Shown here in pieces: positions 27,676-64,000 of a stretch of DNA of 64,000 nt. This stretch comes from an uncultured Bdellovibrionales bacterium. Lineage in GTDB: Bacteria > Patescibacteriota > Minisyncoccia > Moranbacterales > UBA2206. Positions within the stretch are counted from its first letter, which is position 1. The number at the start of each line of letters is the position of its first letter. The position numbers and the translations under genes were made by a program. The stretch lies in contig CAZIFD010000001.1 in NCBI GenBank assembly GCA_964538685.1, positions 116,295 to 180,294 of the forward strand, read 5' to 3'. The notes below the pieces were generated by a model. That model was not told the origin of the DNA. It did no database searches and was given only the letters and a program-made list of their open reading frames with translations.

Positions 27676-28512
27676 TTATTTTTTTTGAACCAATTTTTTT
27701 CCGTGATATTTTTTAAAGAATTTCAGCGCACTGGCAATATGAATCCAAGTTAGTCGGTTGAAAAGCAAGGAGTGAAGGACGCTTTTTCCGGCGGAGCCTT
27801 TGCCGTGGTAATGATAAACTTTAGCTTCAGGATAATAAACCACTTGAAGCCCTTGTTCCCAGCATCTTCGGCACCAATCAGTATCTTCAAAATACATTTT
27901 AAAGTTTTCATCCATCGGACCGATTAAATCGGCAGTTTTTTTTCTAAGCAAAAAAAACGAACCCATAATCCAATCAACTTTTCTAATGCTTTGGTGGTCA
28001 AATTCCTTCATCATAAACCAGTCCAAGTGTTTTTTTGCGAAACCGAATTTGCCCAAAAGAGTTCGGCGGTAAAGAATGGTGAGTGGGGTATAAAAACGAA
28101 AAGTTGACGGTTGCAGGGTTTCATTGAAATTGAGAAGTTGCGGACCGGCAATGCCCACTTCCGGGTGATCAACAATGAAATCCAATATTTTTTCAATGGC
28201 ATTTTTTTTGACGACAATGTCTCCATTCATAATCAAAAGAAATTCTCCTTGGACTGCGTTCAAACCGCGATTAACCGTTCCGCTAAAACCGATATTTCTT
28301 TTTTCCGGTAAAAATTTTATTTCCGGATATTCTTCTCTCATCATTAAGGCAGTATCTTCTTGGGTGGCGGAATCGGAAACAATTATTTCATAATCATTTT
28401 TTTTTAAGGTGATATTTTTAAGCACCGAATTCAAACAAACTTTCAAAAGTTCAGGATTGCGATAATGGGTAATGATAATGGAGAGTTTCATAAAAATTTT
28501 CTCAGGTTGCAA
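27676..28512 (-). CDS. Glycosyltransferase family 2
   Basis: LSIIITHY...DSAT...NGD...EDTDWCRRC is a GT-A/GT2 signature. Confidence 0.75.
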   Translation of the reverse strand: MQPEKIFMKLSIIITHYRNPELLKVCLNSVLKNITLKKNDYEIIVSDSATQEDTALMMREEYPEIKFLPEKRNIGFSGTVNRGLNAVQGEFLLIMNGDIVVKKNAIEKILDFIVDHPEVGIAGPQLLNFNETLQPSTFRFYTPLTILYRRTLLGKFGFAKKHLDWFMMKEFDHQSIRKVDWIMGSFFLLRKKTADLIGPMDENFKMYFEDTDWCRRCWEQGLQVVYYPEAKVYHYHGKGSAGKSVLHSLLFNRLTWIHIASALKFFKKYHGKKLVQKK

Positions 28513-28545
28513 ACAAGAAGCGCTTTCTTAGGGCGCTTCATTTTT

Positions 28546-29739
28546 TTATTTAGGTTCAATGTCTGATTGAACCGGAAGTGTGAAGATATTTTCGGCCATA
28601 GCGTGGATTTTGTCGTAGTTGTCTCCGATTGGCAAGAGAATGTATCCAGCCGCCGGATCAGAATTTTCCGGATGATATAAGAGTCCTTCCTCGGTGTTTT
28701 CCAGCACCCTTTGGAAGGTTTCCGGATTTTGCATTCCTGAATAAATTTCATACATTTTCTTAACTTCCCAGAGATCCATATCAGTTCTGACATTGTCTCC
28801 TAAACTGTCAAGAATTCCATTGAGTTTTTCATAGTCGGACAAAGTTCCGGCGCTGAGCATTTTTTCCTTAACTTCTTTGATGATAAGTTGCTGTCTTTTG
28901 GCTCTTTCAAAATCATTGGAAGTTTTGCGCGATCTGACAAAGCAAAGAGCGGTTTCTCCATTTAATGTTTGTTTTCCGGCGGGCAAAGAAAATGCTCCTC
29001 CGCATTCAGTGTCGGGATTGACGCAAAGCGGATAGGTTTTTGCCAGGTATTTGGTTCCGTCTTGGCGAGTATAATATTTGTATTCATAATTTCCGGTTGG
29101 CTTGGTGAAAACATAAGAATCACAAACTTTTTCCTCTTGAAATTGAAGAGGTTCGCTGAAAGCTTCCTTGAGTTCTATTTCCACTCCGCCAATGGCGTCA
29201 ATGAGTTGTTCAAATCCGGCAAAATTGATGCTGGCGGCATAATGAATTTTGATTCCTAAAACTTCAGATAAAACAGTTTTCATATCTTCCAATCCTTGAC
29301 CTTTCCCTTTTTCTTCTCCGTAATGATGAACAGCATTGATTTTTTGTTTATTTTGAGTTCCGGGAACAGTAACATACAAATCTCTGGGAATGGAAATCAT
29401 AGACATTTTGTTCTCTGCTGGTTTGAAAGAGAAAACTATGATAGTGTCCGCCAGCAAACCTCCTCCGGGAACATTTTCTCCTCTCATTCCGAGAAGAGCA
29501 ACATTAATTCTTCCCTCTTCCTCTCCTTGAAGTTTATTTTCTACTCCGGGAAGCGAATGGATTAAACTGCTCAGCACTCCCCCGTCAGTTATTTTGTTGA
29601 GAATGCGTCCGGTTTTCCAGGCAAATATTCCTCCGCCGATTAAAACTATTCCCAAAACAACAACGATTATTTGAAACCATTTCTTTTTGTAAAACCGTGT
29701 TTGAATTCGGTTATTGTTTTCTTTTGGACTGTGTATCAT
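28546..29739 (-). CDS. LytR-CpsA-Psr (LCP) family protein
   Basis: N-terminal TM then the LCP core (RINVALLGMRG...DTIIVFS...SIPRDLYV). Confidence 0.75.
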   Translation of the reverse strand: MIHSPKENNNRIQTRFYKKKWFQIIVVVLGIVLIGGGIFAWKTGRILNKITDGGVLSSLIHSLPGVENKLQGEEEGRINVALLGMRGENVPGGGLLADTIIVFSFKPAENKMSMISIPRDLYVTVPGTQNKQKINAVHHYGEEKGKGQGLEDMKTVLSEVLGIKIHYAASINFAGFEQLIDAIGGVEIELKEAFSEPLQFQEEKVCDSYVFTKPTGNYEYKYYTRQDGTKYLAKTYPLCVNPDTECGGAFSLPAGKQTLNGETALCFVRSRKTSNDFERAKRQQLIIKEVKEKMLSAGTLSDYEKLNGILDSLGDNVRTDMDLWEVKKMYEIYSGMQNPETFQRVLENTEEGLLYHPENSDPAAGYILLPIGDNYDKIHAMAENIFTLPVQSDIEPK

Positions 29740-29828: not shown

Positions 29829-30992
29829 TCAATGCTTATTATTGCTGTCTAGTTGTTGAAAAAACTTTAACATTTTTTGAGCCGTTTTTTCCCAGGAAAA
29901 CTCTTTTAGTTTTTCTTCTCCCTTAGCAATCAAACTTTTTCGCAAATCATTTTTAGCAAGGATATCTTCCAGATTTTTTTTCAAATTAGCTGTTTTTCTG
30001 GTGTCAAAAAGAAGAGCGGCTGAGCCGGCTACTTCAATGTGAGATGGAATGCGGGAGGCGACAACTGGTGTTTTGAAAGCAAAAGCTTCCAAGATTGGAA
30101 TACCAAAACCTTCGTAGAGAGAAGGAAAGCAAAAAACTTGAGCTAAGTGGAAAAAATACGGTTTGTCTTCTTCGGAAATAAATCCGGGAAAAATAACTTT
30201 TTTTTGAAGTTTCATTTCTTCAATTTTTTCTTCAATTTTTTGATCAAAATTATATCCCCTTCCTCCCGCCAAAACCAATCTTAATTCCGGTTCGGTTTTT
30301 GACAGTTGGCTGAAAGCTGAAATTAGCATCGGAATATTTTTTCTCGGTTGTAGGGTGCCAAGATAAAGAATAAATTTTTCCGGCAATTCATATTTATTTT
30401 TTATTACTTCTGTTTTTTCCGGTAAAAAATTAAAATTTAAAAAATTATCAGAAACGGAATTATGAAACCAATCAATCTTTTTTTCATCTTGAGCAGGATA
30501 ATATTTAAGAATTTCCTGACTGGTAAACCGAGAAACGCCAAGAATCAGATCAGCTCTTTTGAGGCTTAGCGGAATGAATAAATTCAGAAAAAAAAGATCA
30601 ATTTTTTTGATCATTTTCGGATAAACCCGAAAAGAAACATCATGAATAATGGTGATTATTTTGGTTCTTTTGGGGACAAAAAAAGGAACGATATATTGTG
30701 TCAAATAAACATCTAACGGGTTTTTGCGGACAAACCTGGGAAGAGTCCAAAAATTCCAAACGAACTTGTTGATTCCGGCCTCTCCCAGATTTATCACTGT
30801 GAAGTTATTACGAAGTTTCATTTTTTTTATTTCATCGCAAAGGAACTGATCTTTTTTTGGATTGCGGTCGGTGAAAAGCCAATATTCATTTGTTTTGTCA
30901 ATTTGAGACAAATTTTTAACCAAATTGAAAAAGACGACTTCGTCGCCTGTTCGGCCCTTGCCAATATTTCTAATATCAATTCCAATTCTCAT
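29829..30992 (-). CDS. Glycosyltransferase family 4 (GT-B)
   Basis: C-terminal EGFGIPILEAFAFKTPVVAS motif (E-x7-E type). Confidence 0.75.
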   Translation of the reverse strand: MRIGIDIRNIGKGRTGDEVVFFNLVKNLSQIDKTNEYWLFTDRNPKKDQFLCDEIKKMKLRNNFTVINLGEAGINKFVWNFWTLPRFVRKNPLDVYLTQYIVPFFVPKRTKIITIIHDVSFRVYPKMIKKIDLFFLNLFIPLSLKRADLILGVSRFTSQEILKYYPAQDEKKIDWFHNSVSDNFLNFNFLPEKTEVIKNKYELPEKFILYLGTLQPRKNIPMLISAFSQLSKTEPELRLVLAGGRGYNFDQKIEEKIEEMKLQKKVIFPGFISEEDKPYFFHLAQVFCFPSLYEGFGIPILEAFAFKTPVVASRIPSHIEVAGSAALLFDTRKTANLKKNLEDILAKNDLRKSLIAKGEEKLKEFSWEKTAQKMLKFFQQLDSNNKH

Positions 30993-31000
30993 TTAGTTCT

Positions 31001-32596
31001 TTATTTTCTAACTAAACTCACGGCCAAAAACACCCATAAGAATCCTAACATAATTCCACTGTTAAATAAATTGGAAAAAGTCAAGGCAATCCAAGCGGAT
31101 ACAATGAAAAGCAACCAAGACTTTTCCGACAAAGCAACTGAATTTAGAAAATCACAAATAGCCTTTCCCAAAAGAAACAACCAGAAAATAAGAAGGGATA
31201 AAAATCCAATCAGCCCGCTTCCGAGATAAATTTCTAAAAACAAATTGCTGGCATTGAGGCTGGCTCCTCTTTCATCGGTTCCCAAAATTTGTCCCATACT
31301 TCCCCAACCGATGCCAAGAATTGGATGCGCTTTGATTTGTTCCCAAGATTTTTGGTAAATTTGATTGCGAATATTGAAATTTGGATCAGGACGATAAGTT
31401 TCACTGACAAATCTTCCATTATTTTTTTCAGTTTCAATTTCTTCCAAATTAATGTGGCGACAATTATATTTTTTCAATTCTTCAATTGATGAAATAGTTT
31501 GAGGAATAGTCGTTTCTTTTTCGCAAGAAACGGTAATTTTTTGTTTTCCGGAGCCGGTGCTTTCCAGACGATTGGCTAATTGAAAATTGGTGAGGCTAAA
31601 AATATAAATAATAGCTATTGAAATTAGAGTGGAAACAACGATTCCGAAAAGATTTTTCCAAAAAATTTTCCAGTGCCATTTTTTTATAGATTCAAAATTA
31701 ATTTTCAATGAGGCGAAAAGAAAAATTGCGATCGCGCCCATCGCTCCAATCCAAGCGCTTCTGGAAACAGTGAGAATAAGGAGGGTTAGGGATAAGGTTA
31801 AAAAAATCCAACTACCGGCTTGCTTCAAATTTCTGGTTTTTGTTCCCAGGATTTCTTTGTAGGTTTCAACTTCTTTTTTACTGAAATAAAAAACAACTGC
31901 TAAAAGAGAACTTATTAGAAAAGCTAGAAAAATTCCCAGCCAATCCGGTTCTTGAAAAGTTGAATTGGGGCGTCCCGGCATTATTTCAAAAGATTCCAGA
32001 CCACTCCCAAAACGCCAACTTTGCCAAATGCCATAAAGCACAATCACAAAAGACGAACTGAAAAAGAAAGGGATGATTCTTTTGAGATCGGAATAATCTT
32101 GAACAAAAATTCTGGTTATAAAATAGATTAATATGAATGAAATTATGATTAGGGATAATTTAAAACTGAGTCCCCTTTCAGGAGCGTTTAGGGCGCTTAT
32201 GAATCCGGAAATTCCGAAAATAATAATTAAAAAATCCGGCCAGCCCAATCGGGGCAAAGAAAAATTAAGCCTTTTGGAAAAATGTCTTATGCAAATGGCC
32301 GAAACCACCAAAAGAGCCAAAATTTGGTAGGCGCGTAAATTGAGAGGAAAATTTTCCGGAGCCAAGTTTAAATTTTCCAAAGTTATTGTGCTCACAAAAA
32401 AAAGAAACGCCCAGCCGGGGCGATAAAGCGCGAAGGCCAAGGAAAGAAAAAATAAAAAACAAAAATCTCCCAAGCTCAAAGGAAAAGTTCCAAGATTAAA
32501 AAGAGAGATCAGAAAAAAAACCAAAAAAGTTCCGGCCAAAACCAATCCTATTTTCAGTCTATTGAGATTTTGAAAAGCATATTTCAATTTTTCCAT
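31001..32596 (-). CDS. O-antigen ligase/polymerase-like (Wzy_C/WaaL-like) polytopic membrane protein
   Basis: At least 10 TM helices with SRSAWIGAMGAIAIF, matching the Wzy_C motif region. Sits among GT genes. Confidence 0.55.
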   Translation of the reverse strand: MEKLKYAFQNLNRLKIGLVLAGTFLVFFLISLFNLGTFPLSLGDFCFLFFLSLAFALYRPGWAFLFFVSTITLENLNLAPENFPLNLRAYQILALLVVSAICIRHFSKRLNFSLPRLGWPDFLIIIFGISGFISALNAPERGLSFKLSLIIISFILIYFITRIFVQDYSDLKRIIPFFFSSSFVIVLYGIWQSWRFGSGLESFEIMPGRPNSTFQEPDWLGIFLAFLISSLLAVVFYFSKKEVETYKEILGTKTRNLKQAGSWIFLTLSLTLLILTVSRSAWIGAMGAIAIFLFASLKINFESIKKWHWKIFWKNLFGIVVSTLISIAIIYIFSLTNFQLANRLESTGSGKQKITVSCEKETTIPQTISSIEELKKYNCRHINLEEIETEKNNGRFVSETYRPDPNFNIRNQIYQKSWEQIKAHPILGIGWGSMGQILGTDERGASLNASNLFLEIYLGSGLIGFLSLLIFWLFLLGKAICDFLNSVALSEKSWLLFIVSAWIALTFSNLFNSGIMLGFLWVFLAVSLVRK

Positions 32597-32600
32597 AATT

Positions 32601-33779
32601 TTATTTTTCTGAAATTTGAAAGGTTGAAATAATAGTTAATATTTTTTTGAGAAATTTTTTCCACGAAAATTCTTCGGATCTTTCTTGTCCTTTTCTTTTC
32701 AAATCTTGTCGCAAATTTTCTTGGATCAGAATTTTTTTCATAATGTGAGATATTTCTTCCGTATCTTCGGGATTGCAATAAAGAACCCCGTCTTTTCCGA
32801 CTTCTGGCAGAGAAGAAGTTTTGGAAGTCAGAACAGGAACTCCTTGACTCATAGCTTCCAAAACCGGCAAACCGAACCCTTCATAAAATGAGGGATAAAC
32901 AAAAAGCGAAGCTTGGTTATAAACAGCGGGCATTTCTTTTTGAGGAACAAATCCGAGAGTTTTAACTTTTCCAATCAGATTATTTTTTTTAATCAATTTT
33001 TCCACATCAGTCATGAGTGGCGCCAGCTTTGGATTAAGCTTTCCAATGATGACAAGTGGCGGAATTTGGGACAAGAATTTTTCCTGCTTGTTTCTTTCAA
33101 TTAATTTTTTGTAGGCCAAAATCAGACCGCGGATATTTTTTCTTTTGTCTAATCCGGCTCCTCCGAGAATGTAGCCGGGTTTCAGATGATATTTTGTCAA
33201 GACTTCGGAAATTTTTTCCGAGGTTGGTTTTTTTTGATAAATCGGATCAGTGGCGATATAGTTGGTGGTAATTTTTTCTCCGGCAATACCCAATTCTTGA
33301 ATCAGATCTTTTTCCGTTCTCTTGGAAACAGAAATCAAACGGGTAGCTTTTTTAATAGCTTTTTCGGTTAGCTTTTGATAATTTTTTTTGCGTGAATTAT
33401 TCAAATATTCAGGAAAAAAACGAGGAATAAGATCGTGAACCAGCATTAGATGGGGTATTTTTTTGGGCAAAACAGTCGGGCATTGATAAAGACTGAAAAA
33501 TAAATCACAGTTGTCTTTTTTTGCTTTTTTGGGCAATGAATATTTTTCCCACCAAATTTTTCGGATCAGGTCGTCTCTTTTCCAGAGGGGCAAGAAAGCG
33601 CGAATTTCAAAATTTTTCGGCACGGCAAAATCTTTGGGAGGCAATTCCTCAAAGTATAAGACAAATTCATTTTGGCTTTTGTCTTCAATCTCAAATAACT
33701 CTTTGAGAAAGTTTAATGAAACTTGCCCGATGCCGGTTCCCGGCTTTCTGATGAAAGATGCATTGATGCCAATTTTCAT
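32601..33779 (-). CDS. Glycosyltransferase family 4 (GT-B)
   Basis: EGFGLPVLEAMSQGVPVLTS motif. Confidence 0.75.
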   Translation of the reverse strand: MKIGINASFIRKPGTGIGQVSLNFLKELFEIEDKSQNEFVLYFEELPPKDFAVPKNFEIRAFLPLWKRDDLIRKIWWEKYSLPKKAKKDNCDLFFSLYQCPTVLPKKIPHLMLVHDLIPRFFPEYLNNSRKKNYQKLTEKAIKKATRLISVSKRTEKDLIQELGIAGEKITTNYIATDPIYQKKPTSEKISEVLTKYHLKPGYILGGAGLDKRKNIRGLILAYKKLIERNKQEKFLSQIPPLVIIGKLNPKLAPLMTDVEKLIKKNNLIGKVKTLGFVPQKEMPAVYNQASLFVYPSFYEGFGLPVLEAMSQGVPVLTSKTSSLPEVGKDGVLYCNPEDTEEISHIMKKILIQENLRQDLKRKGQERSEEFSWKKFLKKILTIISTFQISEK

Positions 33780-34182: not shown

Positions 34183-35469
34183 ATGACAAAAAAAACAGAA
34201 CAGAAAACAGTTTGTGTTGTCGGATTGGGTTATGTGGGTTTGCCTTTGGCAATGCGATCGCTTGAACGAGGTTATGGTGTAATCGGTTTTGATTTGGACG
34301 AGAAAAAAAACCGACTTATCAATCAAGGAAAAAATCCGATTGAAGAAAAATTTTTGGAAAACTACTTTAAAAATTTTCAGTTGCGAGCTACTAGCGACGA
34401 AAAAGAAATTAAAAAAGCGGATATAGTTTTGATTTGTGTTCCGACTCCGGTGGATGAAAAATTTTTTCCCGATCTTCGTCCGGTCAAGGGAGCGACGGAA
34501 TTGGTGGCAAGAAATCTCAAAAAAGGCGCCTTGGTAGTTTTGGAATCAACAGTGAATCCTGGCGTTTCAGAGGAAGTGGTGGCGCCGATTCTTGAAGTGG
34601 CGGGACACAAAATTGGCGAAGATGTTTTTTTGGCTCACTGTCCGGAAAGAATCAATCCGGGAGACGAGAATTGGAATGTGACCAATATTCCTCGGGTAGT
34701 CGGTTCTTTTGAAAAAAAAGGTCTCAAAATGGCTAAAGATTTTTATGAATCAATTGTGGATGGACCAATCAGACCAATGAAATCCATTCGGGAAGCGGAA
34801 GCGGTCAAGATTGTGGAAAATTCTTTCCGAGATATTAATATTGCTTTTGTGAACGAGCTGGCTAAATCTTTTGACAAGTTGGATATTGATGTTCGGGATG
34901 TGATTTTGGGGGCTGCTACCAAGCCCTTTGCTTTTCTGGCTCACTTCCCTTCTTGTGGAGTGGGCGGTCACTGTATTCCGGTTGACCCTTACTATCTTAT
35001 TGAACGCGCCAAGGAATCGGGATTTGACCATAAATTTCTTAGAATTGCTCGCGAAATCAATAACTCAATGCCAGAATACACCGTGGAAAAACTGCAGGAC
35101 GCTTTGAATGAAATCAAACTCCCGATGAAAGGAACGAAAGTCGGACTGTTGGGAATTTCCTACAAAGCCAATGTGGATGATGTGCGTGAATCTCCCTCTC
35201 TCAAAATTATGGAATTGCTCAAAAAATATGGTTGCGATTTTCAAGTCTTTGACCCGCATATTCTTTCAAAATCAACGGTCAAAAATTTGGAAGCTATTCT
35301 AAAAAAATCCCAAGCTTTGATTTTGGCTACCAATCACGATGAATTTCTTGATATTGACGGACCAATGCTCAAGAAGTTTGGTGTTAAAATTGTAATTGAT
35401 GGGAAGAATTGTTTGGACAAGCAAAAAATCAAAAAATCAGGTATAATATATAAAGGAATCGGAAGATAG
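34183..35469 (+). CDS. UDP-N-acetyl-hexosamine (ManNAc/GlcNAc) 6-dehydrogenase, WecC/WbpA-like
   Basis: Rossmann VVGLGYVGLPLA, catalytic-Cys motif GGHCIPVDPYYL typical of WecC/WbpA rather than Ugd. Confidence 0.75.
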   Translation: MTKKTEQKTVCVVGLGYVGLPLAMRSLERGYGVIGFDLDEKKNRLINQGKNPIEEKFLENYFKNFQLRATSDEKEIKKADIVLICVPTPVDEKFFPDLRPVKGATELVARNLKKGALVVLESTVNPGVSEEVVAPILEVAGHKIGEDVFLAHCPERINPGDENWNVTNIPRVVGSFEKKGLKMAKDFYESIVDGPIRPMKSIREAEAVKIVENSFRDINIAFVNELAKSFDKLDIDVRDVILGAATKPFAFLAHFPSCGVGGHCIPVDPYYLIERAKESGFDHKFLRIAREINNSMPEYTVEKLQDALNEIKLPMKGTKVGLLGISYKANVDDVRESPSLKIMELLKKYGCDFQVFDPHILSKSTVKNLEAILKKSQALILATNHDEFLDIDGPMLKKFGVKIVIDGKNCLDKQKIKKSGIIYKGIGR

Positions 35470-35736: not shown

Positions 35737-35740
35737 AGTC

Positions 35741-56493: not shown

Positions 56494-57801
56494 TTAATTT
56501 CTCCCTACTCCAAAATATTCAAATCCGGCATCTTTCAGAGTTTGCGGGTCATACACATTTCGGAGATCAACAAAAACCGGTTTTTTCATTAATTTTTTAA
56601 TTTTAGACAAATCCAGCGAACGGTATTCATTCCATTCAGTCAGAAGAACAAGGCATTCGGCGTTTTTGGCGACTTCATAGGGGTCGCCCACATATTCAAT
56701 TTCCGGCATCAATTCTTTGGCGACTTTCATTGCTTCAGGATCGTGCGCTTTAACAAGGGCGCCTTTTTCAGAGAGAGCGGTTAAGATTGTGAGAGCGGCT
56801 GCTTCACGCATATCATCAGTTTCCGGCTTGAAAGCCAAACCTAAAATCCCGACAGTTTTTCCTGACTCATTTCCTCCTAAAGCTTTTTTAACTTTCTGGA
56901 CCATCCGAGCTTTCTGGGCACTGTTGACTTCAATGACGGTCTCCACAATGCGACTGGGAGCGCCGTGTTCTTGAGCGATGCGAGTGAGGGCGTGAGTATC
57001 TTTGGGAAAACAAGATCCGCCGTAGCCCGGACCGGGATGCAAAAATTTTGGTCCGATTCTTTTGTCCAGTCCCATTCCTTTGGAAAGAGCGGTAATATCG
57101 GCGTTGATTTCTTCGCACAAATTGGCCATTTCATTAATGAAGCTGATTTTGGTAGCCAGAAAGGCGTTGGAAGCGTATTTGATAAGTTCGGCGGTTTGCG
57201 GATTAGTAACCACCATTGGGGTTTCAATAAGGTAAAGCGGTTTATAAATATCCCGCATCACTTTTTCGGCTTTTTTGGTTTCTACTCCAATAACCACTCG
57301 GTCAGGACGCATAAAATCATCAATTGCAGCTCCTTCTCGCAAAAATTCCGGATTGGAAACTACATCAAATTTGGCTTTCTTGTTGGTTTCTTTGATGATT
57401 CTCTTGACTTGTTTGGCTGTACCGACCGGAACGGTGCTTTTGTCAATAACGGCAGTGTAGTGATTGATGTGGGGCGCAATTTCTCGGGCGGCTTCATAAA
57501 CAAAAGATAAGTCGGCATAGCCGTCGCCACGACGCGAAGTTGGAGTTCCGACAGCAATAAAAACCGCATCCATATCAGTTACGGCTTTTTTGGTTTCAGT
57601 AGTGAAAGAAAGTCTTTTTTCCTTAACATTTTTAGCTACCAACTCGTCAAGTCCGGGTTCGTAGATTGGAATTTTTCCTTTCTCCAAGGCTTCAATTTTT
57701 TTCTTGTCTTTGTCTAAGCAAATCACACTATTGCCAAATTCTGCCAAACAGGTGCCACTGACGAGTCCGACATAACCTGTTCCAATGATGCCGATTTTCA
57801 T
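56494..57801 (-). CDS. ugd: UDP-glucose 6-dehydrogenase
   Basis: GTGYVGLVSG Rossmann, catalytic-Cys GGSCFPKD. 435 aa. Confidence 0.85.
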   Translation of the reverse strand: MKIGIIGTGYVGLVSGTCLAEFGNSVICLDKDKKKIEALEKGKIPIYEPGLDELVAKNVKEKRLSFTTETKKAVTDMDAVFIAVGTPTSRRGDGYADLSFVYEAAREIAPHINHYTAVIDKSTVPVGTAKQVKRIIKETNKKAKFDVVSNPEFLREGAAIDDFMRPDRVVIGVETKKAEKVMRDIYKPLYLIETPMVVTNPQTAELIKYASNAFLATKISFINEMANLCEEINADITALSKGMGLDKRIGPKFLHPGPGYGGSCFPKDTHALTRIAQEHGAPSRIVETVIEVNSAQKARMVQKVKKALGGNESGKTVGILGLAFKPETDDMREAAALTILTALSEKGALVKAHDPEAMKVAKELMPEIEYVGDPYEVAKNAECLVLLTEWNEYRSLDLSKIKKLMKKPVFVDLRNVYDPQTLKDAGFEYFGVGRN

Positions 57802-57805: not shown

Positions 57806-58744
57806 TTATCTTTCGCTTATTTTTTTAATTTTGTAATTCATATGACCTTGGTTTTTGTAATAATTTTTGACCATAATATCAGCCAAGAGTCCGAAAACAA
57901 AAAGTTGGATGCCAATCATAATCAAAAATACTCCAACTAGTGGCCAAATTTTTTCACTGAGCGAAGTTCCAAAAAATATTTTTTCTATTAACATCCAAGC
58001 CAAGACAGCGATTCCGAGAAGCGACAAAACGATGCCACTGCCACCGAAAAGGTGAAGTGGTCGGTTGGAATATTTTCGCCAAAACCAAATGGAAATCATA
58101 TCTACAAAACCTTTGACTCCCCTTTTCCAATTATATTTGGTCTTGCCGTGAATTCTGGGATGATGTGATACCTTAACTTCGCCGACTTTGTAGCCTTCCA
58201 ATTCCAAGATAGCCGGAATAAAACGATGCATTTCTCCAAAAAGATCAACATCTTGAAAACATTCTCTTTTGTAGGCTTTGAGCGAACAACCGGAATCGTG
58301 AATTTTGTCTTGAATCAGAATTTTTCTGAGAAGATTGGCGGTTCGGGAAAAGAATCGTTTGGAAAAAGTGTCTTTTCTATCAAATCTCCAGCCGGAAACC
58401 ACATCAAACCCTTGGCTTATTTCAGAAAGAAGAAGCCGGATGTCGGCTGGATCGTTTTGGAGGTCGCCGTCCATTGTGATGATTATTTCTCCGTTTGCAT
58501 TTTTGATGCCGGCGTCAAAAGCGGCGGTTTGGCCGAAATTTTTTCGGAATTGAATCAGCTTGAGAGGTGTTAGTCCTTCGGTTTCAGAAACGGTTTTATC
58601 TTTGGATCCGTCGTCAATAAAAATTATTTCATAACTTTTTCCCAATGACTCGCAAGCCTCTTTGATTTTTCGGTGCAATTCTTTGACATTCCCCTCTTCG
58701 TTGTAAAGTGGCACGACAACTGACAGTTCTTTGGTGTGTTCCAT
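57806..58744 (-). CDS. GT2 polyprenol-phosphate glycosyltransferase (DPM1/GtrB/ArnC-like)
   Basis: LSVVVPLYNEEGNV...IFIDDGSKDKT...MDGDLQ plus two C-terminal TM helices. Confidence 0.75.
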   Translation of the reverse strand: MEHTKELSVVVPLYNEEGNVKELHRKIKEACESLGKSYEIIFIDDGSKDKTVSETEGLTPLKLIQFRKNFGQTAAFDAGIKNANGEIIITMDGDLQNDPADIRLLLSEISQGFDVVSGWRFDRKDTFSKRFFSRTANLLRKILIQDKIHDSGCSLKAYKRECFQDVDLFGEMHRFIPAILELEGYKVGEVKVSHHPRIHGKTKYNWKRGVKGFVDMISIWFWRKYSNRPLHLFGGSGIVLSLLGIAVLAWMLIEKIFFGTSLSEKIWPLVGVFLIMIGIQLFVFGLLADIMVKNYYKNQGHMNYKIKKISER

Positions 58745-58888: not shown

Positions 58889-59452
58889 ATGCAAGAAAAA
58901 TTTGAGGCGGTTTGCGAACTCTTGAAAAAATTAAAGGAAGACCAATCTTTTTTGGAAGCTTCCCAAAAAGCCTCTGAAAAAATCGCCAAATCTTTGGAAA
59001 ATGGAGGCAAGCTTTTGGTTTGCGGAAATGGTGGCAGTGCGACGGAGGCTTCTCATATGGTCGGAGAATTTGTCGGTCGTTTCGGTTTTGATCGTCCGGC
59101 ATTGCCGGCCATCTCTCTTTTTGACTTGGCTTCAACGACAGCCATTGGCAATGATTATGGGTATGATGATATTTTTTCCCGTTTTGTAGATGGTCTGGGA
59201 AAAGAAAATGATGTTTTGTTTTCATTGAGCACTAGTGGCAATTCAAAAAATTGCTTAAAAGCAATGGAGACGGCTCAAAAAAAAGGAATGACGAACATTG
59301 CTCTTTTGGGAAGAGATGGAGGCGCAATGAAGGAATTGGCGGATGTTTCAATTGTGGTTTCTTCCGACAAAACTCCGCTCATTCAAGAAGTGCATTTGAT
59401 GGTGATTCATAATTTGTGCGAAAAAACGGAAAATTATTTTTTTAAGAAATAA
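58889..59452 (+). CDS. gmhA: Phosphoheptose isomerase (SIS domain)
   Basis: KLLVCGNGGSATEASHMVGEF...FSLSTSGNS matches GmhA. Confidence 0.8.
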   Translation: MQEKFEAVCELLKKLKEDQSFLEASQKASEKIAKSLENGGKLLVCGNGGSATEASHMVGEFVGRFGFDRPALPAISLFDLASTTAIGNDYGYDDIFSRFVDGLGKENDVLFSLSTSGNSKNCLKAMETAQKKGMTNIALLGRDGGAMKELADVSIVVSSDKTPLIQEVHLMVIHNLCEKTENYFFKK

Positions 59453-59464
59453 AACAGCTAATTT

Positions 59465-60508
59465 ATGATTACGGAAAAAAGAGTTTTGGAAATTATTAAA
59501 AATGCTCAAAGGAAAAATGTTCTTTCAGTGGGAGATGTGATGCTGGATGCCTATATGAATGGAACAGTGGAGCGATTTTCTCAGGAAGCGCCGGTGCCGG
59601 TAGTGCCGGTGACGGAAGAAGAATTTTTTCCCGGTGGAGCGGGAAATGCGGCGGCTTGCCTTTCAACTGTCGGAATTAAAACCCACTTGTTTTCAGTGGT
59701 GGGAAGCAAAGAAAGAATCAGTTATTCTAAAATTCTTAAAGAAGAATGCAAAAAAAGCGGAATAATCCCCTATTTTTCTATTGATTCCACGAGAAAAACA
59801 ACTCTCAAACTTCGTTTGGCAGCCAGAAAAACTACCAGTCAACATATTGCTCGGGTGGATATGGAGGATACTTTTCCAATTGGTCACGAAATTGAAAACA
59901 GACTGATTGCTGACATCAAAAAAAATTATGCCAAAATAAAACCATTGGCTATCGCTATTCATGATTACAAAAAAGGATTGCTGACGGAGAAAATATTTTC
60001 TTTCTTGATGAAGTTGTCGCAAGACAAAAAAATTCCGGTTTTCGCCGATCTCAAACAGGACACTTTCGTCAAATACCGAAGCTTGATTTTGGCGCCGGAA
60101 TTATTTTTTTTGAAACCCAACCGAGGCGAATCGGTGGAGACGGCCAAGCTTTTGAACGGTTTTGACAAAAATGGAAAAACGGATGAAGAAATAGTGGAAG
60201 TGGGGAAAATAATTCAAAAGGAAGTTCCCATCAAAATTATTATTACCCGAGGAGAAAAAGGAGCGGTCTTTTTGGAAAAAGGAAAGAAACCGTACTTTGT
60301 TCGGATTAAGCAAGTGGAGGAGCAATTTGATGTGGCGGGTGCTGGCGACACGGTGGAGGCTTTTTTGGTAATGAGTCATTTGGGCGGGGCGACTATGGAA
60401 GAAGCCTTGGAAATCGCCGTGGCGGCTTCACAAGTGGCCATTCGCAAATTCGGCACTTCGGTAGTTTCGCAAGATGAAATTTTGGAATGGATAAGGAAAA
60501 ACCCATGA
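59465..60508 (+). CDS. D-glycero-beta-D-manno-heptose-7-phosphate kinase (RfaE/HldE domain I, PfkB family), stand-alone
   Basis: GDVMLDAYMNGTVERFSQEAPVPVV...GAGDT is the RfaE-I pattern. Confidence 0.75.
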   Translation: MITEKRVLEIIKNAQRKNVLSVGDVMLDAYMNGTVERFSQEAPVPVVPVTEEEFFPGGAGNAAACLSTVGIKTHLFSVVGSKERISYSKILKEECKKSGIIPYFSIDSTRKTTLKLRLAARKTTSQHIARVDMEDTFPIGHEIENRLIADIKKNYAKIKPLAIAIHDYKKGLLTEKIFSFLMKLSQDKKIPVFADLKQDTFVKYRSLILAPELFFLKPNRGESVETAKLLNGFDKNGKTDEEIVEVGKIIQKEVPIKIIITRGEKGAVFLEKGKKPYFVRIKQVEEQFDVAGAGDTVEAFLVMSHLGGATMEEALEIAVAASQVAIRKFGTSVVSQDEILEWIRKNP

Positions 60509-61077
60509 AAGTCATTTTTCTTGATCGGGATGGGACAATTAATGTGGACAAGGGCTATGTTTTTCAAAAAGAAAATTTGGTTTGGGAAAAAAATGTGATT
60601 TCAGGACTCAAGCTTCTTGGGGAAAGCGGATTTGAATTCATAATCATTACTAATCAGTCGGGAATCGCCCGAGGATATTTTTCCGAAAAAGAATTTTTTG
60701 AGTTTAATGATTTTTTGGTGGCGGAACTAAAAAAAGAAAACATAGCCATCAAAAAAACCTATTTTTGCCCCTATCATCCCACTGAAGGAATAGGAAAATA
60801 TTTACTTGATTCCCCTCTTAGAAAACCGGGAACCGGAATGATTGAAAAAGCTTTTCGGGATTTTCCGATTGACAAAAAATCATCTTGGATGATTGGCGAC
60901 AAATGGTCAGATGTTTTGGCGGGAAAAAATTTCGGTTTGCGTTCAGTTTTGGTTTCAACCGGAAAAGCCGGTCAAGACAAAGAGCACCAAACTGAGGCTG
61001 ATTTTGTGGCTAAAGATTTTCTGGAAGCGGCCAAGTTTATAATAAACATGACTGGATTCCCGCTTTCGCGGGAATGA
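60487..61077 (+). CDS. gmhB: D,D-heptose 1,7-bisphosphate phosphatase (HAD)
   Basis: FLDRDGTIN motif I, ...GDKWSD motif IV. The last nine codons and the stop come from the palindromic repeat. Confidence 0.75.
   Translation: MDKEKPMKVIFLDRDGTINVDKGYVFQKENLVWEKNVISGLKLLGESGFEFIIITNQSGIARGYFSEKEFFEFNDFLVAELKKENIAIKKTYFCPYHPTEGIGKYLLDSPLRKPGTGMIEKAFRDFPIDKKSSWMIGDKWSDVLAGKNFGLRSVLVSTGKAGQDKEHQTEADFVAKDFLEAAKFIINMTGFPLSRE
61046..61077. repeat. Copy of the dispersed GC-rich palindromic repeat (ACTGGATTCCCGCTTTCGCGGGAATGACAA), forming the 3' end and stop of gmhB
   Basis: Identical core to 47368-47400. Encodes the ...MTGFPLSRE* tail of gmhB. Confidence 0.65.
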
Positions 61078-61087
61078 CAAAAAAAAT

Positions 61088-61573
61088 ATGAAAAACAAAA
61101 TAAAAAGTGAAGCGGAAATAATTGAAATTGCCCGAAAACTGAAACAAGAAGGCAAAAAAATCGTAACTACCAATGGGTCGTTTGATATTTTTCATTTCGG
61201 CCACACTCTCCTCTTTGAAGAAGCCAAAAAACAAGGCGACGCATTGATTGTCGGCATAAACAGCGACCAATCAGTCAAAGAATATAAGGGTCCGGACCGA
61301 CCAATCAATCCGGAGCAGGCGCGTGCCGGCGTGGTGGCAGCACTTCAAGCGGTTGATTTTGTTTTTCTTTTTGATGACACGACGCCGAACCGTTGGCTGG
61401 AGCTCATCGTTCCGGATGTTCATTGCAATTCCAGTGAATACGGAGAAAATTGTGTGGAAAGGCCGACTCTCAACAAAATAGGAGCCAGATTGCACTTGGT
61501 TCAAAGGGATGCAAACGACGGACTTTCTACTAGTGAAATGATTGAAAAAATAATCAAAATTTACGGAAAATAA
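61088..61573 (+). CDS. D-glycero-beta-D-manno-heptose-1-phosphate adenylyltransferase (RfaE/HldE domain II), stand-alone
   Basis: Cytidylyltransferase-fold motif TNGSFDIFHFGHTLLFEEAKK. 161 aa. Confidence 0.8.
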   Translation: MKNKIKSEAEIIEIARKLKQEGKKIVTTNGSFDIFHFGHTLLFEEAKKQGDALIVGINSDQSVKEYKGPDRPINPEQARAGVVAALQAVDFVFLFDDTTPNRWLELIVPDVHCNSSEYGENCVERPTLNKIGARLHLVQRDANDGLSTSEMIEKIIKIYGK

Positions 61574-61581: not shown

Positions 61582-63501
61582 ATGTTTGAAAAAAATAAAA
61601 ACAAAAAATTAATTTTTGGCAAAATATTTGCGATAGTTGTTTTTATTTTTACTTTTTTTCCGGTCGGAAAATTTTTTTCAGAAAAAGTCCAAGCTTCGGA
61701 ACAACCGGAAGCCAAGCCGATTTCGGAAGAATTTGAAAATTGGAAAGAGTCCCAAAATGATTCTTCAGTGAAAAAATTAAAATCTTCGGTTTTGTCTCAT
61801 GATCACGCTACCGGTCTTGTTCCGGATCCTTTTCGGAAAAACAATCGCAGTTTGAGCGCAGAGTCCGAATCGGCGGATGTTTTGGCAATGAAGATTGAAG
61901 CTGAAAAAGAAGAAGCTTCCAAATTGGGCTTTCCGGCTGTTTATGATTTGCGCAGTTTGGGCTCCGTTTCTTCGGTGAAAAACCAAGGGACTTGCGGATC
62001 TTGCTGGGTTTTTGCCACAGCCGGTTCTTTGGAATCCAACTGGTTGACTTTGGGAGAAAGTGAGAAGAATATTTCGGAAAACAATATGAAAGAGTGTCAT
62101 CGGTTTGATTGGTCTCCTTGTGAAGGGGGAAATTCTTCTATGGCTACTTCCTATCTAAGTCTTAATCAAGGTCCGGTTTTGGAAACCAGCGATCCCTATT
62201 CGGAAGAAGAAGAAAACAGTTGCGTTTCCAGTTTGACTCCTTTGAATTATGTTTATGAAGCCCATTATCTTCCAAACACTATGAGCGTCATAAAACAAGC
62301 CATAACGGATCATGGCGCTCTCTTCACTTCGCTTTATATGAATGAGAGTTCTTCCTATTACAACTCCAGCAATTATACTTATTATTATTACGGCTCGGCT
62401 AATCCTAACCACGCTGTCACCTTGGCTGGTTGGGATGACACCAAAGTAACGGCTGGTGGAACCGGTGCTTGGATCATCAAGAATAGTTGGGATTCTTCTT
62501 GGGGGGACAATGGTTATTTTTATGTTTCCTACAACGACACCAAAATCAATAGCGAAGTGACGGTTTGGACTAAAAAAGAAGACTATACAACTGACAAAAA
62601 AATTTACGCTTATGATGAAATCGGAGCGGTGGGAGGGGTTGGTTATAGCGATGGAACCGATTATAGCGCGACAAAATTCACAGCTACCGGAAATCAAAAA
62701 ATTACCCGAATTGCCAGTTGGATTCCGGACAATGGAGCGACAGTGAGTTTTTGGATTTATAGTGGTTTTGACGGTACTAATTTTTCCGGACTTTTGGGAT
62801 CACTTGTTGACCAAACGGCGACTTATGCGGGTTATTACACTTTTGATTTAGCTTCGCCAGTTTCCATTTCGGGCGGGAGTGATTTTTATGTGAAAGCAAA
62901 GTTTGATATTCCTTCAACCAATTATCCTATTCCGGCTGAATATGCCGAAGACGGCTATATGACTCCGTCTATTCAAAGTGGAAAAAATTGGGTTAGCAAT
63001 AATGGAACAAGTTGGCTTTCTATTGGTTCTGGAACGGGATATGATTATGATTTAGGTGTTCGGGTGTATGCAGAAGGAAACACCGGCACTTCCCCGATTT
63101 ATCGCTTTCAAAACAAAACAAACGGTACTTATCTGTTTACAGGACAAACAGAAAAAGATTCTGTGATTGTGAATTATTCTCAAACATTTACTCTTGAAGG
63201 GTTAGCATTTTATGTGCCAGCTTCAGGGATTCCTATATATCGCTTTCAAAATAAAAATAATGGAACATATTTATTTACTGGTGAAGAAGAAAAAAATTCC
63301 GTACTGGAAAATTATTCTCAAACATTTACTCTTGAAGGGTTAGCATTTTATGTGCCAGCTTCAGGGATTCCTATATATCGCTTTCAAAATAAAAATAATG
63401 GAACATATTTATTTACTGGTGAAGAAGAAAAAAATTCCGTACTGGAAAATTATTCTCAAACATTTACTCTTGAAGGGTTAGCATTTTATGCTTCTAACTA
63501 A
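61582..63501 (+). CDS. Secreted/membrane-anchored papain-like (C1) cysteine peptidase with C-terminal triple 46-aa repeat
   Basis: N-terminal TM/signal. Catalytic Cys motif QGTCGSCWVFA, His motif NHAVTLAGWDD, Asn/Trp motif IKNSWDSSWGDNGYFYV. C-terminus carries three IYRFQNK(N)NGTYLFTG...YSQTFTLEGLAFY repeats. Confidence 0.75.
   Translation: MFEKNKNKKLIFGKIFAIVVFIFTFFPVGKFFSEKVQASEQPEAKPISEEFENWKESQNDSSVKKLKSSVLSHDHATGLVPDPFRKNNRSLSAESESADVLAMKIEAEKEEASKLGFPAVYDLRSLGSVSSVKNQGTCGSCWVFATAGSLESNWLTLGESEKNISENNMKECHRFDWSPCEGGNSSMATSYLSLNQGPVLETSDPYSEEEENSCVSSLTPLNYVYEAHYLPNTMSVIKQAITDHGALFTSLYMNESSSYYNSSNYTYYYYGSANPNHAVTLAGWDDTKVTAGGTGAWIIKNSWDSSWGDNGYFYVSYNDTKINSEVTVWTKKEDYTTDKKIYAYDEIGAVGGVGYSDGTDYSATKFTATGNQKITRIASWIPDNGATVSFWIYSGFDGTNFSGLLGSLVDQTATYAGYYTFDLASPVSISGGSDFYVKAKFDIPSTNYPIPAEYAEDGYMTPSIQSGKNWVSNNGTSWLSIGSGTGYDYDLGVRVYAEGNTGTSPIYRFQNKTNGTYLFTGQTEKDSVIVNYSQTFTLEGLAFYVPASGIPIYRFQNKNNGTYLFTGEEEKNSVLENYSQTFTLEGLAFYVPASGIPIYRFQNKNNGTYLFTGEEEKNSVLENYSQTFTLEGLAFYASN
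63093..63501 (+). repeat. Tandem 138-bp coding repeat: one diverged copy plus two essentially identical copies (63231-63368 and 63369-63501)
   Basis: Direct comparison shows copies 2 and 3 identical over about 130 nt. Copy 1 (63093-63230) is about 75-80% identical. Confidence 0.8.
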
Positions 63502-63509
63502 CACTAGAA

Positions 63510-64000
63510 TCATTTATTGATTAATTGTTTAAATTTTTCAATTACTTCTTCCGGCTTTATTATTAAACGACATGGATCCTTTTTGTGTCTAATTGATAAA
63601 TCCTTACAGCCTTCATCCCAGCAGGGGTAACAGGACAGTGTTTTTGGTGGTGCGATAACTTCATATTTAGAATAATTTTGGAGACGAGCTTCTGGAAGGA
63701 CTCCTCCAGTAAATATGGCCAAGAACGGAATGTCAGCTAGGGCGGCGACATGATAGGCACTAGTATCAGTGCTTATGACATATTTTCCGAGTTTTATGGC
63801 TTCAATATATTCTGTTATTGTTTTAGTTTTTCCGACTAGATTGACTAGTTTTTCGCCTTGAAAATACGGACTATCTTTTGTGCCTACTACTAAAGGTATG
63901 AATCCTAGGTCTTCAATGGCTTTGATGAGTTTTGGGTAATAGGGTTCCCACCAGCTTCTGGCTGGGTTGGAGGCAATAAGATTAAGCACTACGAAATCCT
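63510..64000 (-). CDS. GT9 heptosyltransferase-like (C-terminal part; gene continues beyond the window end)
   Basis: The translated C-terminal sequence matches GT9: RSWWEPYYPKLIKAIEDLGFIPLVVG...GKTKTITEYIEAIKLGKYVISTDTSAYHVAALADIPFLAIFTGG. The reading frame is open to the window edge, so the Met at 63989 is probably internal. Confidence 0.6.
   Translation of the reverse strand, partial: DFVVLNLIASNPARSWWEPYYPKLIKAIEDLGFIPLVVGTKDSPYFQGEKLVNLVGKTKTITEYIEAIKLGKYVISTDTSAYHVAALADIPFLAIFTGGVLPEARLQNYSKYEVIAPPKTLSCYPCWDEGCKDLSIRHKKDPCRLIIKPEEVIEKFKQLINK

Follow-up and report, generated by a model that had tools for sequence, protein, structure and literature searches.

What a bacterium of the candidate phyla radiation (CPR, or Patescibacteria) could build on its surface with a long and dense run of glycan genes is the question raised by positions 27676-64000 of a 64-kb window of Moranbacteria DNA, the window being the whole stretch at hand and this 36-kb part of it the subject of the present analysis. 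The CPR envelope has hardly been characterised, although these ultra-small episymbionts use it as their interface for attachment to hosts. The part in question is occupied by 31 open reading frames (ORFs), arranged in seven transcription blocks on alternating strands and separated by very short spacers, many of them of 4-12 bp or replaced by overlaps; family calls were made by scanning the window proteins with Pfam and NCBIfam profiles. The region appears to be a cell-envelope glycopolymer locus, a general picture to which we assign a probability of roughly 0.5, and it consists of three parts: a 17.4-kb core of two divergent operons (Part A, 27676-45081), an array of PMT_2/ArnT-type GT-C glycosyltransferases (GTs) together with a membrane phosphoesterase (Part B), and a second conserved module in which an ArnC-like GT2 operon diverges from a heptose operon accompanied by a GT2-GT9 fusion gene (Part C). 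An earlier note on this DNA had described a single system of more than 30 consecutive glycan genes with three GT4 enzymes. Synteny in 80 species genomes, supplemented by four loci for the right half, gives instead two conserved modules and a variable GT-C array; the GT4 genes number five, starting at 29829, 32601, 36698, 40332 and 55331; and the 31 ORFs include an RNA ligase (RtcB), a thymidylate kinase (Tmk) and a papain-C1 protease, all non-glycan, as well as two small membrane proteins of unassigned function, small76 and small124, the former of which had been overlooked. In this way a list of glycosyltransferases becomes a defined, testable unit, namely a 17-kb core and a separately conserved heptose module.

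Conservation of the core was assessed by tblastn of all window proteins against the loci of 80 species genomes, presence being counted in assessable loci, and its gene order is kept in most of these Moranbacteria. On the left arm the order runs, inward from a CtpA-like protease gene, GT2_a, LCP (LytR-CpsA-Psr), GT4_a, Wzy_C and GT4_b, while on the right arm it is dehydrogenase, small76, GT2_AglJ, GT4_c, GT-C, (small124), GT4_d, RtcB, Tmk and Wzx. GT2_AglJ, GT4_c, GT-C, GT4_d, RtcB, Tmk and Wzx are colinear in 42 of the 47 loci in which this could be assessed, each core gene is found in 74-97% of the loci that could be assessed, and neighbouring core genes overlap or sit 4-9 bp apart.

Central to the right arm is GT2_AglJ (35741..36691, plus strand), a polyprenol-phosphate glycosyltransferase of the DPMS/AglJ/PpgS/GacI type with a GT2 domain scoring 63.9 bits, which is encoded in 67/69 loci with 65% mean identity. 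Its DxDxQ motif, D90-A-D-G-Q94, stands unchanged in 72 of 72 sequences, and two C-terminal transmembrane (TM) helices (242-291) follow it; conservation of DxDxQ has been reported for polyisoprenyl-phosphate GT2s (PMC10821137). The best NCBIfam models, AglJ (118 bits against a cutoff of 325) and PpgS (83 against 370), are matched below their cutoffs. Four bp upstream lies the gene for small76 (35506..35736, plus strand), a protein of 76 aa that has a single TM helix and a tail rich in Cys, is found in 57/69 loci and has a counterpart of 77-82 aa in the same slot of three relatives (L001, L003 and L086); by analogy of position, it may be an accessory of GT2_AglJ. Downstream follow two cytoplasmic GT-B enzymes, GT4_c (36698..37771, plus strand; Pfam 133 bits; 72/75 loci), whose gene overlaps that of the GT-C by 8 bp, and GT4_d (40332..41462, plus strand; 64.6 bits; 63/72 loci), between which stands the core signature gene, coding for a GT-C-fold glycosyltransferase of 645 aa from the DUF1616/DUF6541 family (37764..39701, plus strand). 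The right end of the core is formed by Wzx (43600..45081, plus strand), a MOP-family flippase for lipid-linked glycans with at least 11 TM helices (Polysacc_synt 78.6 bits, MurJ 46 bits; 49/54 loci). At the other end of this arm, an NDP-sugar 6-dehydrogenase of the WecC/TviB-like type (34183..35469, plus strand; TIGR03026 412.7 bits against 189.8) falls below the WecC and TviB equivalog cutoffs, is present in 47/64 loci at a mean identity of 66%, and is predicted to supply a uronic acid or N-acetylhexosaminuronic acid donor.

The plus-strand core operon holds four components, namely a polyprenol-phosphate-sugar synthase, a small membrane protein encoded upstream of it, Wzx and a GT-C, and it is this set, with coupled GT-B enzymes interleaved as in the lactococcal polysaccharide pellicle (PSP), that leads us to propose a dual-chain mechanism. 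In lactococci, WpsA/WpsB make GlcNAc-P-C55, which cytoplasmic GTs extend on the monophosphate lipid (PMC10821137); WpsG flips the product, which the GT-C WpsJ then joins to a rhamnan, itself built separately on undecaprenyl pyrophosphate (Und-PP) and anchored to the wall (PMC10821137; review PMC8035078). The question of the initiator is central here. No priming phosphoglycosyl transferase (PGT) was found by Pfam and NCBIfam scans of the 64-kb window, nor in the Pfam-annotated neighbourhoods of L001, L003 and L086. Of the ORFs of 150 aa or longer in the 80 loci, 229 lack a match in the window; their inspected cluster representatives resemble rhodanese, Fmt, FolD, Def, DedA and similar proteins, with nothing PGT-like among them on reading, and no cluster occurs in more than 9 of the 80 loci, on which ground a hidden PGT or further conserved gene near the core was rejected. 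Since neither is found in the 80 loci, the locus-internal initiator would most simply be the polyprenol-phosphate GT2.

The proposal runs as follows. The DPMS/AglJ-like GT2 would charge polyprenol monophosphate with a sugar, small76 perhaps assisting, and GT4_c, which is translationally coupled, would extend the lipid-P-linked glycan in the cytoplasm together with GT4_d, possibly using uronic acid from the adjacent dehydrogenase. Wzx would flip this glycan to the outer face, and the 645-aa GT-C, perhaps with small124, would transfer it to an acceptor glycan. The acceptor chain would be built and polymerised on Und-PP by the operon comprising GT4_b, Wzy_C, GT4_a, LCP and GT2_a, priming being due to an enzyme encoded elsewhere and TagA at 12293 being a candidate for the second step, and LCP would finally attach the chain to peptidoglycan. 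Such an assembly would be like that of the lactococcal rhamnose-rich cell wall polysaccharide and pellicle (Rha-CWPS/PSP) and of GacI/J/K/L, joined to a cell-wall polymer route through Wzx, Wzy_C and LCP, and its carrier-state detail is put forward at less than even odds. The proposal builds on observed family and fold assignments, motifs, membrane topology, operon structure and conservation, and from these we infer the lipid carrier state (P or PP), the pairing of GTs with chains, the sugars, the acceptor and the order of action. If true, the monophosphate-lipid dual-chain route, documented so far for lactococci and streptococci, would also operate in a deep bacterial radiation.

The minus-strand arm contains the genes expected for a wall-attached chain. 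From the centre outward it encodes GT4_b, a cytoplasmic GT-B (32601..33779; Pfam 102.7 bits; 51/61 loci); a polytopic protein of the Wzy_C/WaaL fold (31001..32596; Wzy_C 57.7 bits against 31.7); GT4_a, again a cytoplasmic GT-B (29829..30992; Glycos_transf_1 130 bits; 41/51 loci); the LCP protein (28546..29739), a glycopolymer-to-peptidoglycan transferase by family (PF03816 123.3 bits against a cutoff of 24.6; TIGR00350 94.4 against 62.3) with an N-terminal TM helix at 22-40; and, at the left end of the core, GT2_a (27676..28512; Glycos_transf_2 73.6 bits), a soluble GT-A glycosyltransferase with neither a TM helix nor a DxDxQ motif. LCP neighbours GT4_a in 22 of 26 assessable loci and adjoins GT2_a in at least 17 relatives. 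The Wzy_C protein has the WaaL fold and is either a polymerase or a ligase. In WaaL the catalytic His lies in a periplasmic-loop motif, H[NSQ]x9GxxG; the family at hand shows an invariant S450-N451-x9-G461-x2-G464, with Ser where that His would be expected as far as the sequence goes. The 26 kb upstream of the region consist of housekeeping genes, except for a TagA/WecG-family glycosyltransferase (12293..12985, plus strand; Glyco_tran_WecG 114.6 bits; TIGR00696 99.9 against 69), which may catalyse the Und-PP linkage-unit step and whose gene directly adjoins the core in one relative, L014.

The same genes could also be read as a conventional Wzx/Wzy system making an Und-PP-linked acidic wall polysaccharide of the teichuronic-acid or capsule type, which we regard as possible although unlikely. 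In that case the five GT4s and GT2_a would build one Und-PP-linked repeat unit primed by a PGT encoded elsewhere, Wzx would flip it, Wzy_C would polymerise it and LCP would attach the polymer to peptidoglycan, the GT2/GT-C pairs adding single-sugar branches only, as in GtrABC, CsbB/GtcA/YfhO and GacI/L; the difference from the dual-chain mechanism lies chiefly in where the GT4s act. It is favoured by a gene set that parallels the Bacillus subtilis tua operon, with a TuaD match of 557.7 bits and weak matches to TuaC and TuaG, by the presence and synteny of LCP, Wzx and Wzy_C, by the TagA/WecG gene 15 kb upstream that adjoins the core in L014, and by the fact that a GT2 and GT-C pair is most commonly known from three-component systems that add a single sugar (PMC8035078). 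However, GT4_c sits between the polyprenol-phosphate GT2 and the GT-C, coupled to the latter, in 72/75 loci, no PGT was seen in or beside the core in about 80 genomes on inspection of the unmatched-ORF representatives, and no chain-length regulator was found, all of which argues against such a system.

The 645-aa protein is the most unusual element of the locus. Its matches to DUF6541 and DUF1616 are borderline, and searches of the PDB with its sequence and with a hidden Markov model of its family, as well as with the other polytopic proteins, gave no match, so that a fold comparison was needed. An AlphaFold2 model was built from 34 homologues (pLDDT 79.5, pTM 0.85), and Foldseek returned 14 significant PDB matches for it, all of them GT-Cs with STT3 and AglB at the top and archaeal AglB as the best. 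The model thereby assigns the protein a GT-C fold, and it shows the overall AglB/STT3 layout of a GT-C transmembrane domain followed by a C-terminal alpha/beta domain. Within the family, PTATDMGHH, IIGE, THH, DHNY and K381/R384 (the last in a low-confidence external loop) are invariant, the unvarying positions including H146, H147, E173, H305, H306 and D548, and among the acidic residues E41 and D143 are invariant and D55 nearly so, making them candidates for a catalytic role. The family is compact, with 113 representatives at E ≤ 1e-30 after clustering at 50%, and trails into some 800 weak relatives that include other Paceibacteria and DUF1616 proteins of Methanobacterium; it constitutes a Moranbacteria-centred, uncharacterised GT-C family. 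A 645-aa protein with an AglB-like GT-C fold also provides a function class for two Pfam "domains of unknown function".

Membership of STT3 itself was rejected: a regular-expression search found no WWDYG-like motif in any of the 34 family members, none of the 34 matches Pfam STT3 at E ≤ 1, and they share no conserved DxD, the lone D/E-x-D/E match (DxD, ExD or DxE) in the 645-aa protein being E98-I-D in a non-conserved linker. Compared with STT3, AglB and PglB (GT66), the model has a flexible, low-confidence external loop (369-383) reminiscent of external loop 5, and the GT2 encoded beside it is AglJ-like; on the other hand, identity is only 12-15% with no Pfam STT3 signal, the WWDYG, DxD and TIXE-type motifs are missing from the family, and the C-terminal domain measures merely about 100 aa. 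It is distinctly improbable, in our estimation, that the protein descends from AglB/STT3 as a strongly diverged bacterial branch with a sequon site differing from WWDYG. Acting in archaeal style alongside Wzx, the GT4s and the AglJ-like GT2, it would then transfer a monophosphate-lipid-linked glycan en bloc to proteins of the cell surface, for example pilins or those of an S-layer, and the pathway would be conserved throughout the lineage.

A broader form of protein glycosylation is likewise improbable. In this scheme the flipped glycan would be handed over whole to S-layer proteins, pilins or further proteins of the surface by the 645-aa protein as an AglB/STT3-like DUF1616 GT-C, or by Wzy_C as a PglL-like O-oligosaccharyltransferase, and the PMT_2 GT-Cs would O-glycosylate secreted proteins from polyprenol-phosphate-sugars, like actinobacterial PMT. 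The AglB-like fold, the extension of the family to archaeal DUF1616 proteins, the archaeal N-glycosylation enzyme AglJ as the nearest NCBIfam model of the neighbouring GT2, and the lack of a PGT, as would suit assembly on a monophosphate lipid in the archaeal manner, all speak for it, and Wzy_C domains also occur in the PglL/PilO O-oligosaccharyltransferases. Its weight is reduced by the missing WWDYG-like motif, conserved DxD and STT3 match (at E = 1) in the 34 family members, by a tightly linked and conserved LCP, which points to a wall-attached polymer, and by PMT_2 proteins that give no match to the luminal MIR domain of PMT in the Pfam scan.

The gene 5 bp after that of the 645-aa GT-C encodes small124 (39707..40081, plus strand), a single-pass membrane protein with one TM helix and an ectodomain of about 95 aa, which has counterparts of 117-123 aa in the same slot of L001, L003 and L086. 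It is a possible accessory subunit of the 645-aa GT-C; no Pfam or NCBIfam family is matched by it. The ectodomain of this 124-aa protein is beta-rich, and the idea that it might be a GtrA-type flippase was rejected on account of its single TM helix and ectodomain. As for small76, it has four conserved Cys residues and carries no family assignment.

Beyond the core, Part B would supply further extracytoplasmic decorations, its extra PMT_2/ArnT-type GT-Cs drawing on polyprenol-phosphate-sugars. Counting as polytopic GT-Cs those proteins with about 9-13 or more TM helices and a GT-C fold or family profile, the region has five, the 645-aa protein of the core among them. GTC593 (47572..49353, minus strand; PMT_2 40.5 bits against 26.1) and GTC518 (52847..54403, minus strand; 52.2 bits), the latter encoded by the last gene of the ArnC-like operon, are paralogues (hhalign E 1e-104), with D42/D46 and D38/D42, respectively, conserved after TM1 in the family alignments. 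GTC507 (45816..47339, minus strand) is divergent, scoring 18.9 bits and thus below the 26.1 cutoff; its family aligns over its full length with that of GTC518 (hhalign 97.8%, E 1e-12, 425 columns) and with that of GTC593 at 96.8%, so that homology to the PMT_2 GT-Cs is indicated at the level of sequence profiles, and a DEFLD motif after TM1 is conserved in its family alignment. GTC791 (49418..51793, plus strand), of the PMT/PMT_2 type (PMT_2 53.4 bits, PMT 39.4 bits), is about 40% identical to tandem PMT_2 genes in L084 and has an AVDE motif after the TM helix at 183-201, seen solely in the window copy. An acidic motif after TM1 is expected in PMT/ArnT-type GT-Cs, and these acidic residues are putatively catalytic.

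A membrane-anchored calcineurin-like phosphoesterase with an N-terminal TM helix (51794..52843, plus strand; Metallophos 32.4 bits) is encoded directly against GTC791 with no intergenic gap, and Metallophos genes or fusions occur in the related loci L068, L085 and L088 as well. Behind Wzx, PMT_2-type GT-Cs are found in 0, 1, 2 or 3 copies in 11, 13, 15 and 4 of 43 loci, respectively, and several genomes carry the window's trio of 507-, 593- and 791-aa types. This variation bears on the notion that the locus makes a membrane lipoglycan of the lipomannan or lipoarabinomannan (LM/LAM) type, in which the GT4s would make a glycolipid core that is flipped and then extended processively by the five GT-Cs from the donors of the two polyprenol-phosphate GT2s. 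Several GT-Cs with polyprenol-phosphate GT2s and GT4s follow the mycobacterial logic of phosphatidylinositol mannosides (PIM), LM and LAM, and the GT4 matches include the glycolipid-anchor GTs IagA/BgsA and Mgs; yet a copy number of 0-3 fits decoration better than an essential backbone, LCP and Wzy_C have no part in LM/LAM synthesis, and no inositol or PIM-specific genes were seen, which renders this idea highly improbable.

One further observation on GTC791 concerns its N-terminal extension (residues 1-180, 49418-49960), which holds 3-4 TM helices and is absent from the other PMT_2 paralogues. Profile scans gave no family match for these ~180 aa, which could be a fused accessory or flippase-like module.

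Part C forms a second unit that, judging from the sequence comparison, is separately conserved within Moranbacteria. Its minus-strand operon begins with GT2_ArnC (57806..58744; GT2 domain 105.3 bits), a polyprenol-phosphate GT of the ArnC/PgfS type with the DxDxQ motif D92-G-D-L-Q96 and two C-terminal TM helices (235-287); it matches NCBIfam ArnC at 169 bits against 529 and PgfS at 157 against 500, so neither of the two polyprenol-phosphate GT2s in the region reaches the cutoff of a sugar-fixing equivalog, be it AglJ, PpgS, ArnC or PgfS. Next come a Ugd/TuaD-like UDP-glucose 6-dehydrogenase (56494..57801; TIGR03026 495.6 bits; TuaD 557.7 bits, where the equivalog cutoff is 700), the cytoplasmic GT-B GT4_e (55331..56482; Glycos_transf_1 158.8 bits) and a flippase-like membrane protein of the LPG_synthase_TM/UPF0104 family (54400..55362; Pfam 141.7 bits; TIGR00374 92.5 against 43.2), all on the minus strand. 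Together with GTC518, the products could act as a multi-component transmembrane glycosylation unit adding decorations. On the plus strand, the four-gene operon gmhA-hldA-gmhB-hldC (58889..61573) has heptose-specific models as its best matches, each missing its cutoff (GmhA 206.9 bits against 209.45, rfaE_dom_I 236 against 345, GmhB 145.7 against 149.6, rfaE_dom_II 140 against 181.5), and its product is presumed to be ADP-D-glycero-beta-D-manno-heptose. No HldD or other SDR epimerase was found in the 64-kb window. Some 68 cluster representatives at 60-85% identity, all from Moranbacteria or Patescibacteria, make up the clade in which the HldA-like kinase falls; identity then declines to ~36-38% for canonical enzymes.

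At the right edge of the window lies a heptosyltransferase-like GT9 C-terminal domain (63510..64000, minus strand; Glyco_transf_9 30.1 bits against 22), of which 159 aa are encoded at 63510-63989 before the window end cuts the gene. In relatives this domain makes up the C-terminal half of a fusion protein, GT2-GT9, of 628-725 aa, the fragment being 77-79% identical to the fusion C-termini in L084 and L085. This cytoplasmic GT2-GT9 enzyme would insert the heptose. For the right half, L084 (10001-17643), L085 (10001-15074), and L088 and L089 (10001-14015 each) were compared, and these four Moranbacteria loci share an ArnC-like GT2 gene divergent from the heptose genes, followed by the GT2-GT9 fusion on the opposite strand. 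An orthologue of GT2_ArnC, 68-71% identical, occupies the same position in L084 and L085, where the heptose operon is also kept at 57-70% identity; identities of the module to the window range over 57-79%, the GT9 fragment ranking highest. GT4s and unannotated polytopic proteins are encoded nearby in all four loci, PMT_2 GT-Cs in L084 and L085, and GtrA takes the flippase slot in L084. Nucleotide-heptose synthesis and GT9 are vertically conserved in a lineage presumed to be without lipopolysaccharide (LPS), and the heptose would therefore be a constituent of the cell wall or of a surface glycan.

An SDR epimerase, maybe HldD-like, is encoded beside the GT2-GT9 gene in L085 and L088. Between hldC and the GT9 gene, the window has a secreted papain-C1 protease (61582..63501, plus strand; Peptidase_C1 132.6 bits) with lectin-like and DUF5648 domains (84 and 78.6 bits), which is non-glycan; the content of this slot varies, relatives carrying an FAD oxidoreductase and a DUF2142 GT-C, or a Metallophos gene.

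Set against characterised systems, the region works by analogy like several of them and is a member of none. With the streptococcal and lactococcal Gac/Wps systems it shares a DxDxQ GT2 polyprenol-phosphate-sugar synthase directly preceded by the gene of a small membrane protein, one operon that unites cytoplasmic GTs with a flippase of the Wzx type and a GT-C transferase, LCP wall anchoring, and a side chain that needs no PGT; unlike them, the window genes include no RmlABCD and no Rgp/Gac rhamnosyltransferases, small76, with its single TM helix and Cys-rich tail, differs in topology from the three-helix GacJ/WpsB, the GT2 bears two TM helices of its own, the GT-C comes from the DUF1616/DUF6541 family, a WaaL-fold Wzy_C stands in place of WpsH/I, and RtcB and Tmk are embedded in the operon. 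The B. subtilis tuaABCDEFGH operon with TagTUV and the Gram-positive Wzx/Wzy capsule loci resemble it in Ugd, GT4, GT2, Wzx, a Wzy_C-type protein and LCP, by which analogy the polymer is likely to be acidic and to contain uronic acid; they differ in that the window has neither a TuaA-type PGT nor a TuaF or CpsCD chain-length regulator, in that all equivalog cutoffs are missed, TuaC and TuaG by far, and in that the tua operon is without GT-C, polyprenol-phosphate GT2 modules or heptose. The operon of GT2_ArnC, Ugd, GT4, flippase-like protein and PMT_2 GT-C provides the same three roles as Arn, GtrA/GtrB/GtrC and CsbB/GtcA/YfhO, whereas ArnA, ArnB and ArnD are absent from the window, lipid A is not expected, the candidate flippase is of the LPG_synthase_TM (MprF) type in place of GtrA or ArnE/F, and a GT4 lies inside the operon.

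The ADP-heptose pathway with the GT9 enzymes WaaC/WaaF, finally, is paralleled by four biosynthetic genes in one operon with an adjacent GT9 domain and by separate kinase and nucleotidyltransferase genes in the HldA/HldC organisation, whereas HldD is absent from the window, the four enzymes miss their equivalog cutoffs and fall in a clade specific to Moranbacteria, relatives carry the GT9 fused behind a GT2, and the host is a CPR bacterium for which LPS is not expected. CPR bacteria are generally regarded as lacking LPS, and the 64-kb window contains no lipid A or Kdo genes. It is the missed equivalog cutoffs, the absence of rhamnan genes, PGT, chain-length regulator and HldD, a small protein unlike GacJ in topology and a GT-C of an uncharacterised family that set the region apart from each of these systems.

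The earlier note had held that no pathway could be named for the locus, which is too strong in view of the analogues Gac/Wps, Wzx/Wzy/LCP or teichuronic-acid-type loci, and ADP-heptose with GT9. Pfam and NCBIfam do bear out its GT2, LCP, Wzx, UPF0104 flippase-like protein and membrane phosphoesterase, position by position, as well as its WecC-like and Ugd dehydrogenases, gmhA, rfaE-I, gmhB, rfaE-II and GT9. Both of its polyprenol-phosphate GT2s carry DxDxQ and two C-terminal TM helices, its four PMT/ArnT-like GT-Cs hold, three being above the PMT_2 cutoff and GTC507 being tied to them by hhalign homology, and its putative GT-C at 37764..39701 has the GT-C fold according to the AlphaFold2 model and Foldseek. 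What it called a WaaL/Wzy_C-like ligase keeps the Wzy_C match (57.7 bits) and the WaaL fold, and would act as a ligase or as a polymerase. Its reasoning that Wzx, ligase and LCP together imply a lipid-linked polymer on the wall is sound at the level of family assignments, as is the step from polyprenol-phosphate GT2s and GT-Cs to glycosyl transfer at the outer face, and the CPR origin it proposed agrees with relatives that are all Moranbacteria/Parcubacteria metagenome-assembled genomes (MAGs).

Several points weigh against the dual-chain mechanism and the picture around it. For Moranbacteria, the whole mechanism is a prediction from gene content and sequence. The absence of the rhamnan genes means that the locus is no member of the lactococcal/streptococcal systems, and small76 has one TM helix compared with three in GacJ/WpsB, its activator role being a positional analogy. 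A priming PGT may be encoded elsewhere in the genome, in which case the GT4s would work on Und-PP and the GT2/GT-C pair would add a single-sugar branch. The lack of a detected chain-length regulator counts here as well, the role of Wzy_C as polymerase being putative, and both the presence of peptidoglycan and the absence of LPS in this genome are assumed. With respect to Part C, the right half can be compared in four loci only, which amount to three arrangements, L088 and L089 being near-identical.

Two genes of the core have been considered as glycan enzymes and rejected. RtcB (41449..42945, plus strand; 57/60 loci) is a full-length match to the canonical RNA ligase (Pfam RtcB 236.5 bits), and the P-loop protein at 42952-43590 (plus strand; 52/56 loci), recognised through its family profile as a divergent thymidylate kinase, aligns end to end with Tmk structures of the PDB (2yof, E 1.9e-14). 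Both keep their slot between GT4_d and Wzx in 52-57 of 56-60 Moranbacteria loci, and the GT4_d and RtcB genes overlap by 14 bp. In L014 the minus-strand arm is absent and a housekeeping block, rhodanese-Fmt-Def...TagA, abuts the dehydrogenase gene (compare 7884-12985 in the window), an arrangement indicating that the two arms of the core are separable and that TagA can adjoin it. Directly left of GT2_a lies the gene for an S41 C-terminal processing protease, CtpA-like and with a PDZ domain (26391-27671), which holds the same place in at least five relatives (L007, L024, L028, L041 and L079).

With regard to the source lineage, annotation places homologues of the 645-aa protein in Candidatus Moranbacteria or Parcubacteria. 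When one genome was scanned for each GTDB species, relatives of this GT-C proved to be encoded in 225 species genomes, the best 80 of which are all Moranbacteria/Parcubacteria/Patescibacteria MAGs, and the best match reaches an identity of ≤57%, indicating that the window organism is without a close species representative. A horizontally acquired island was considered and rejected, GC content being uniform (0.35-0.41) and both modules being conserved within the lineage. No published account of this locus was found in the literature on DUF1616/DUF6541, Moranbacteria glycosyltransferases, CPR envelopes, ADP-heptose in Patescibacteria or CPR teichoic acid. Many MAG records with the core locus (L009, L010, L013, L014, L020 and others) are titled "uncultured Bdellovibrionales bacterium", titles that come from SRP/binchicken co-assemblies and are probably mislabelled, as gene content and sequence identities fit Moranbacteria.

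A last observation concerns the 735-bp, ORF-poor gap (45081-45816) between the convergent Wzx and GTC507 genes, which measures about 140 bp in relatives. An Rfam search of this gap returned sub-threshold hairpin-type matches only. It holds a bidirectional terminator-like hairpin at ~45090-45120, a minus-strand ORF of 43 aa (MAKKEPCPKYGTPIALGG..., running from ~45259 down to 45128) whose ribosome-binding site is a perfect AGGAGG, GC-rich hairpins at ~45340-45420 and 45500-45590, and an AT-rich palindrome of ~95 nt at 45599-45696.

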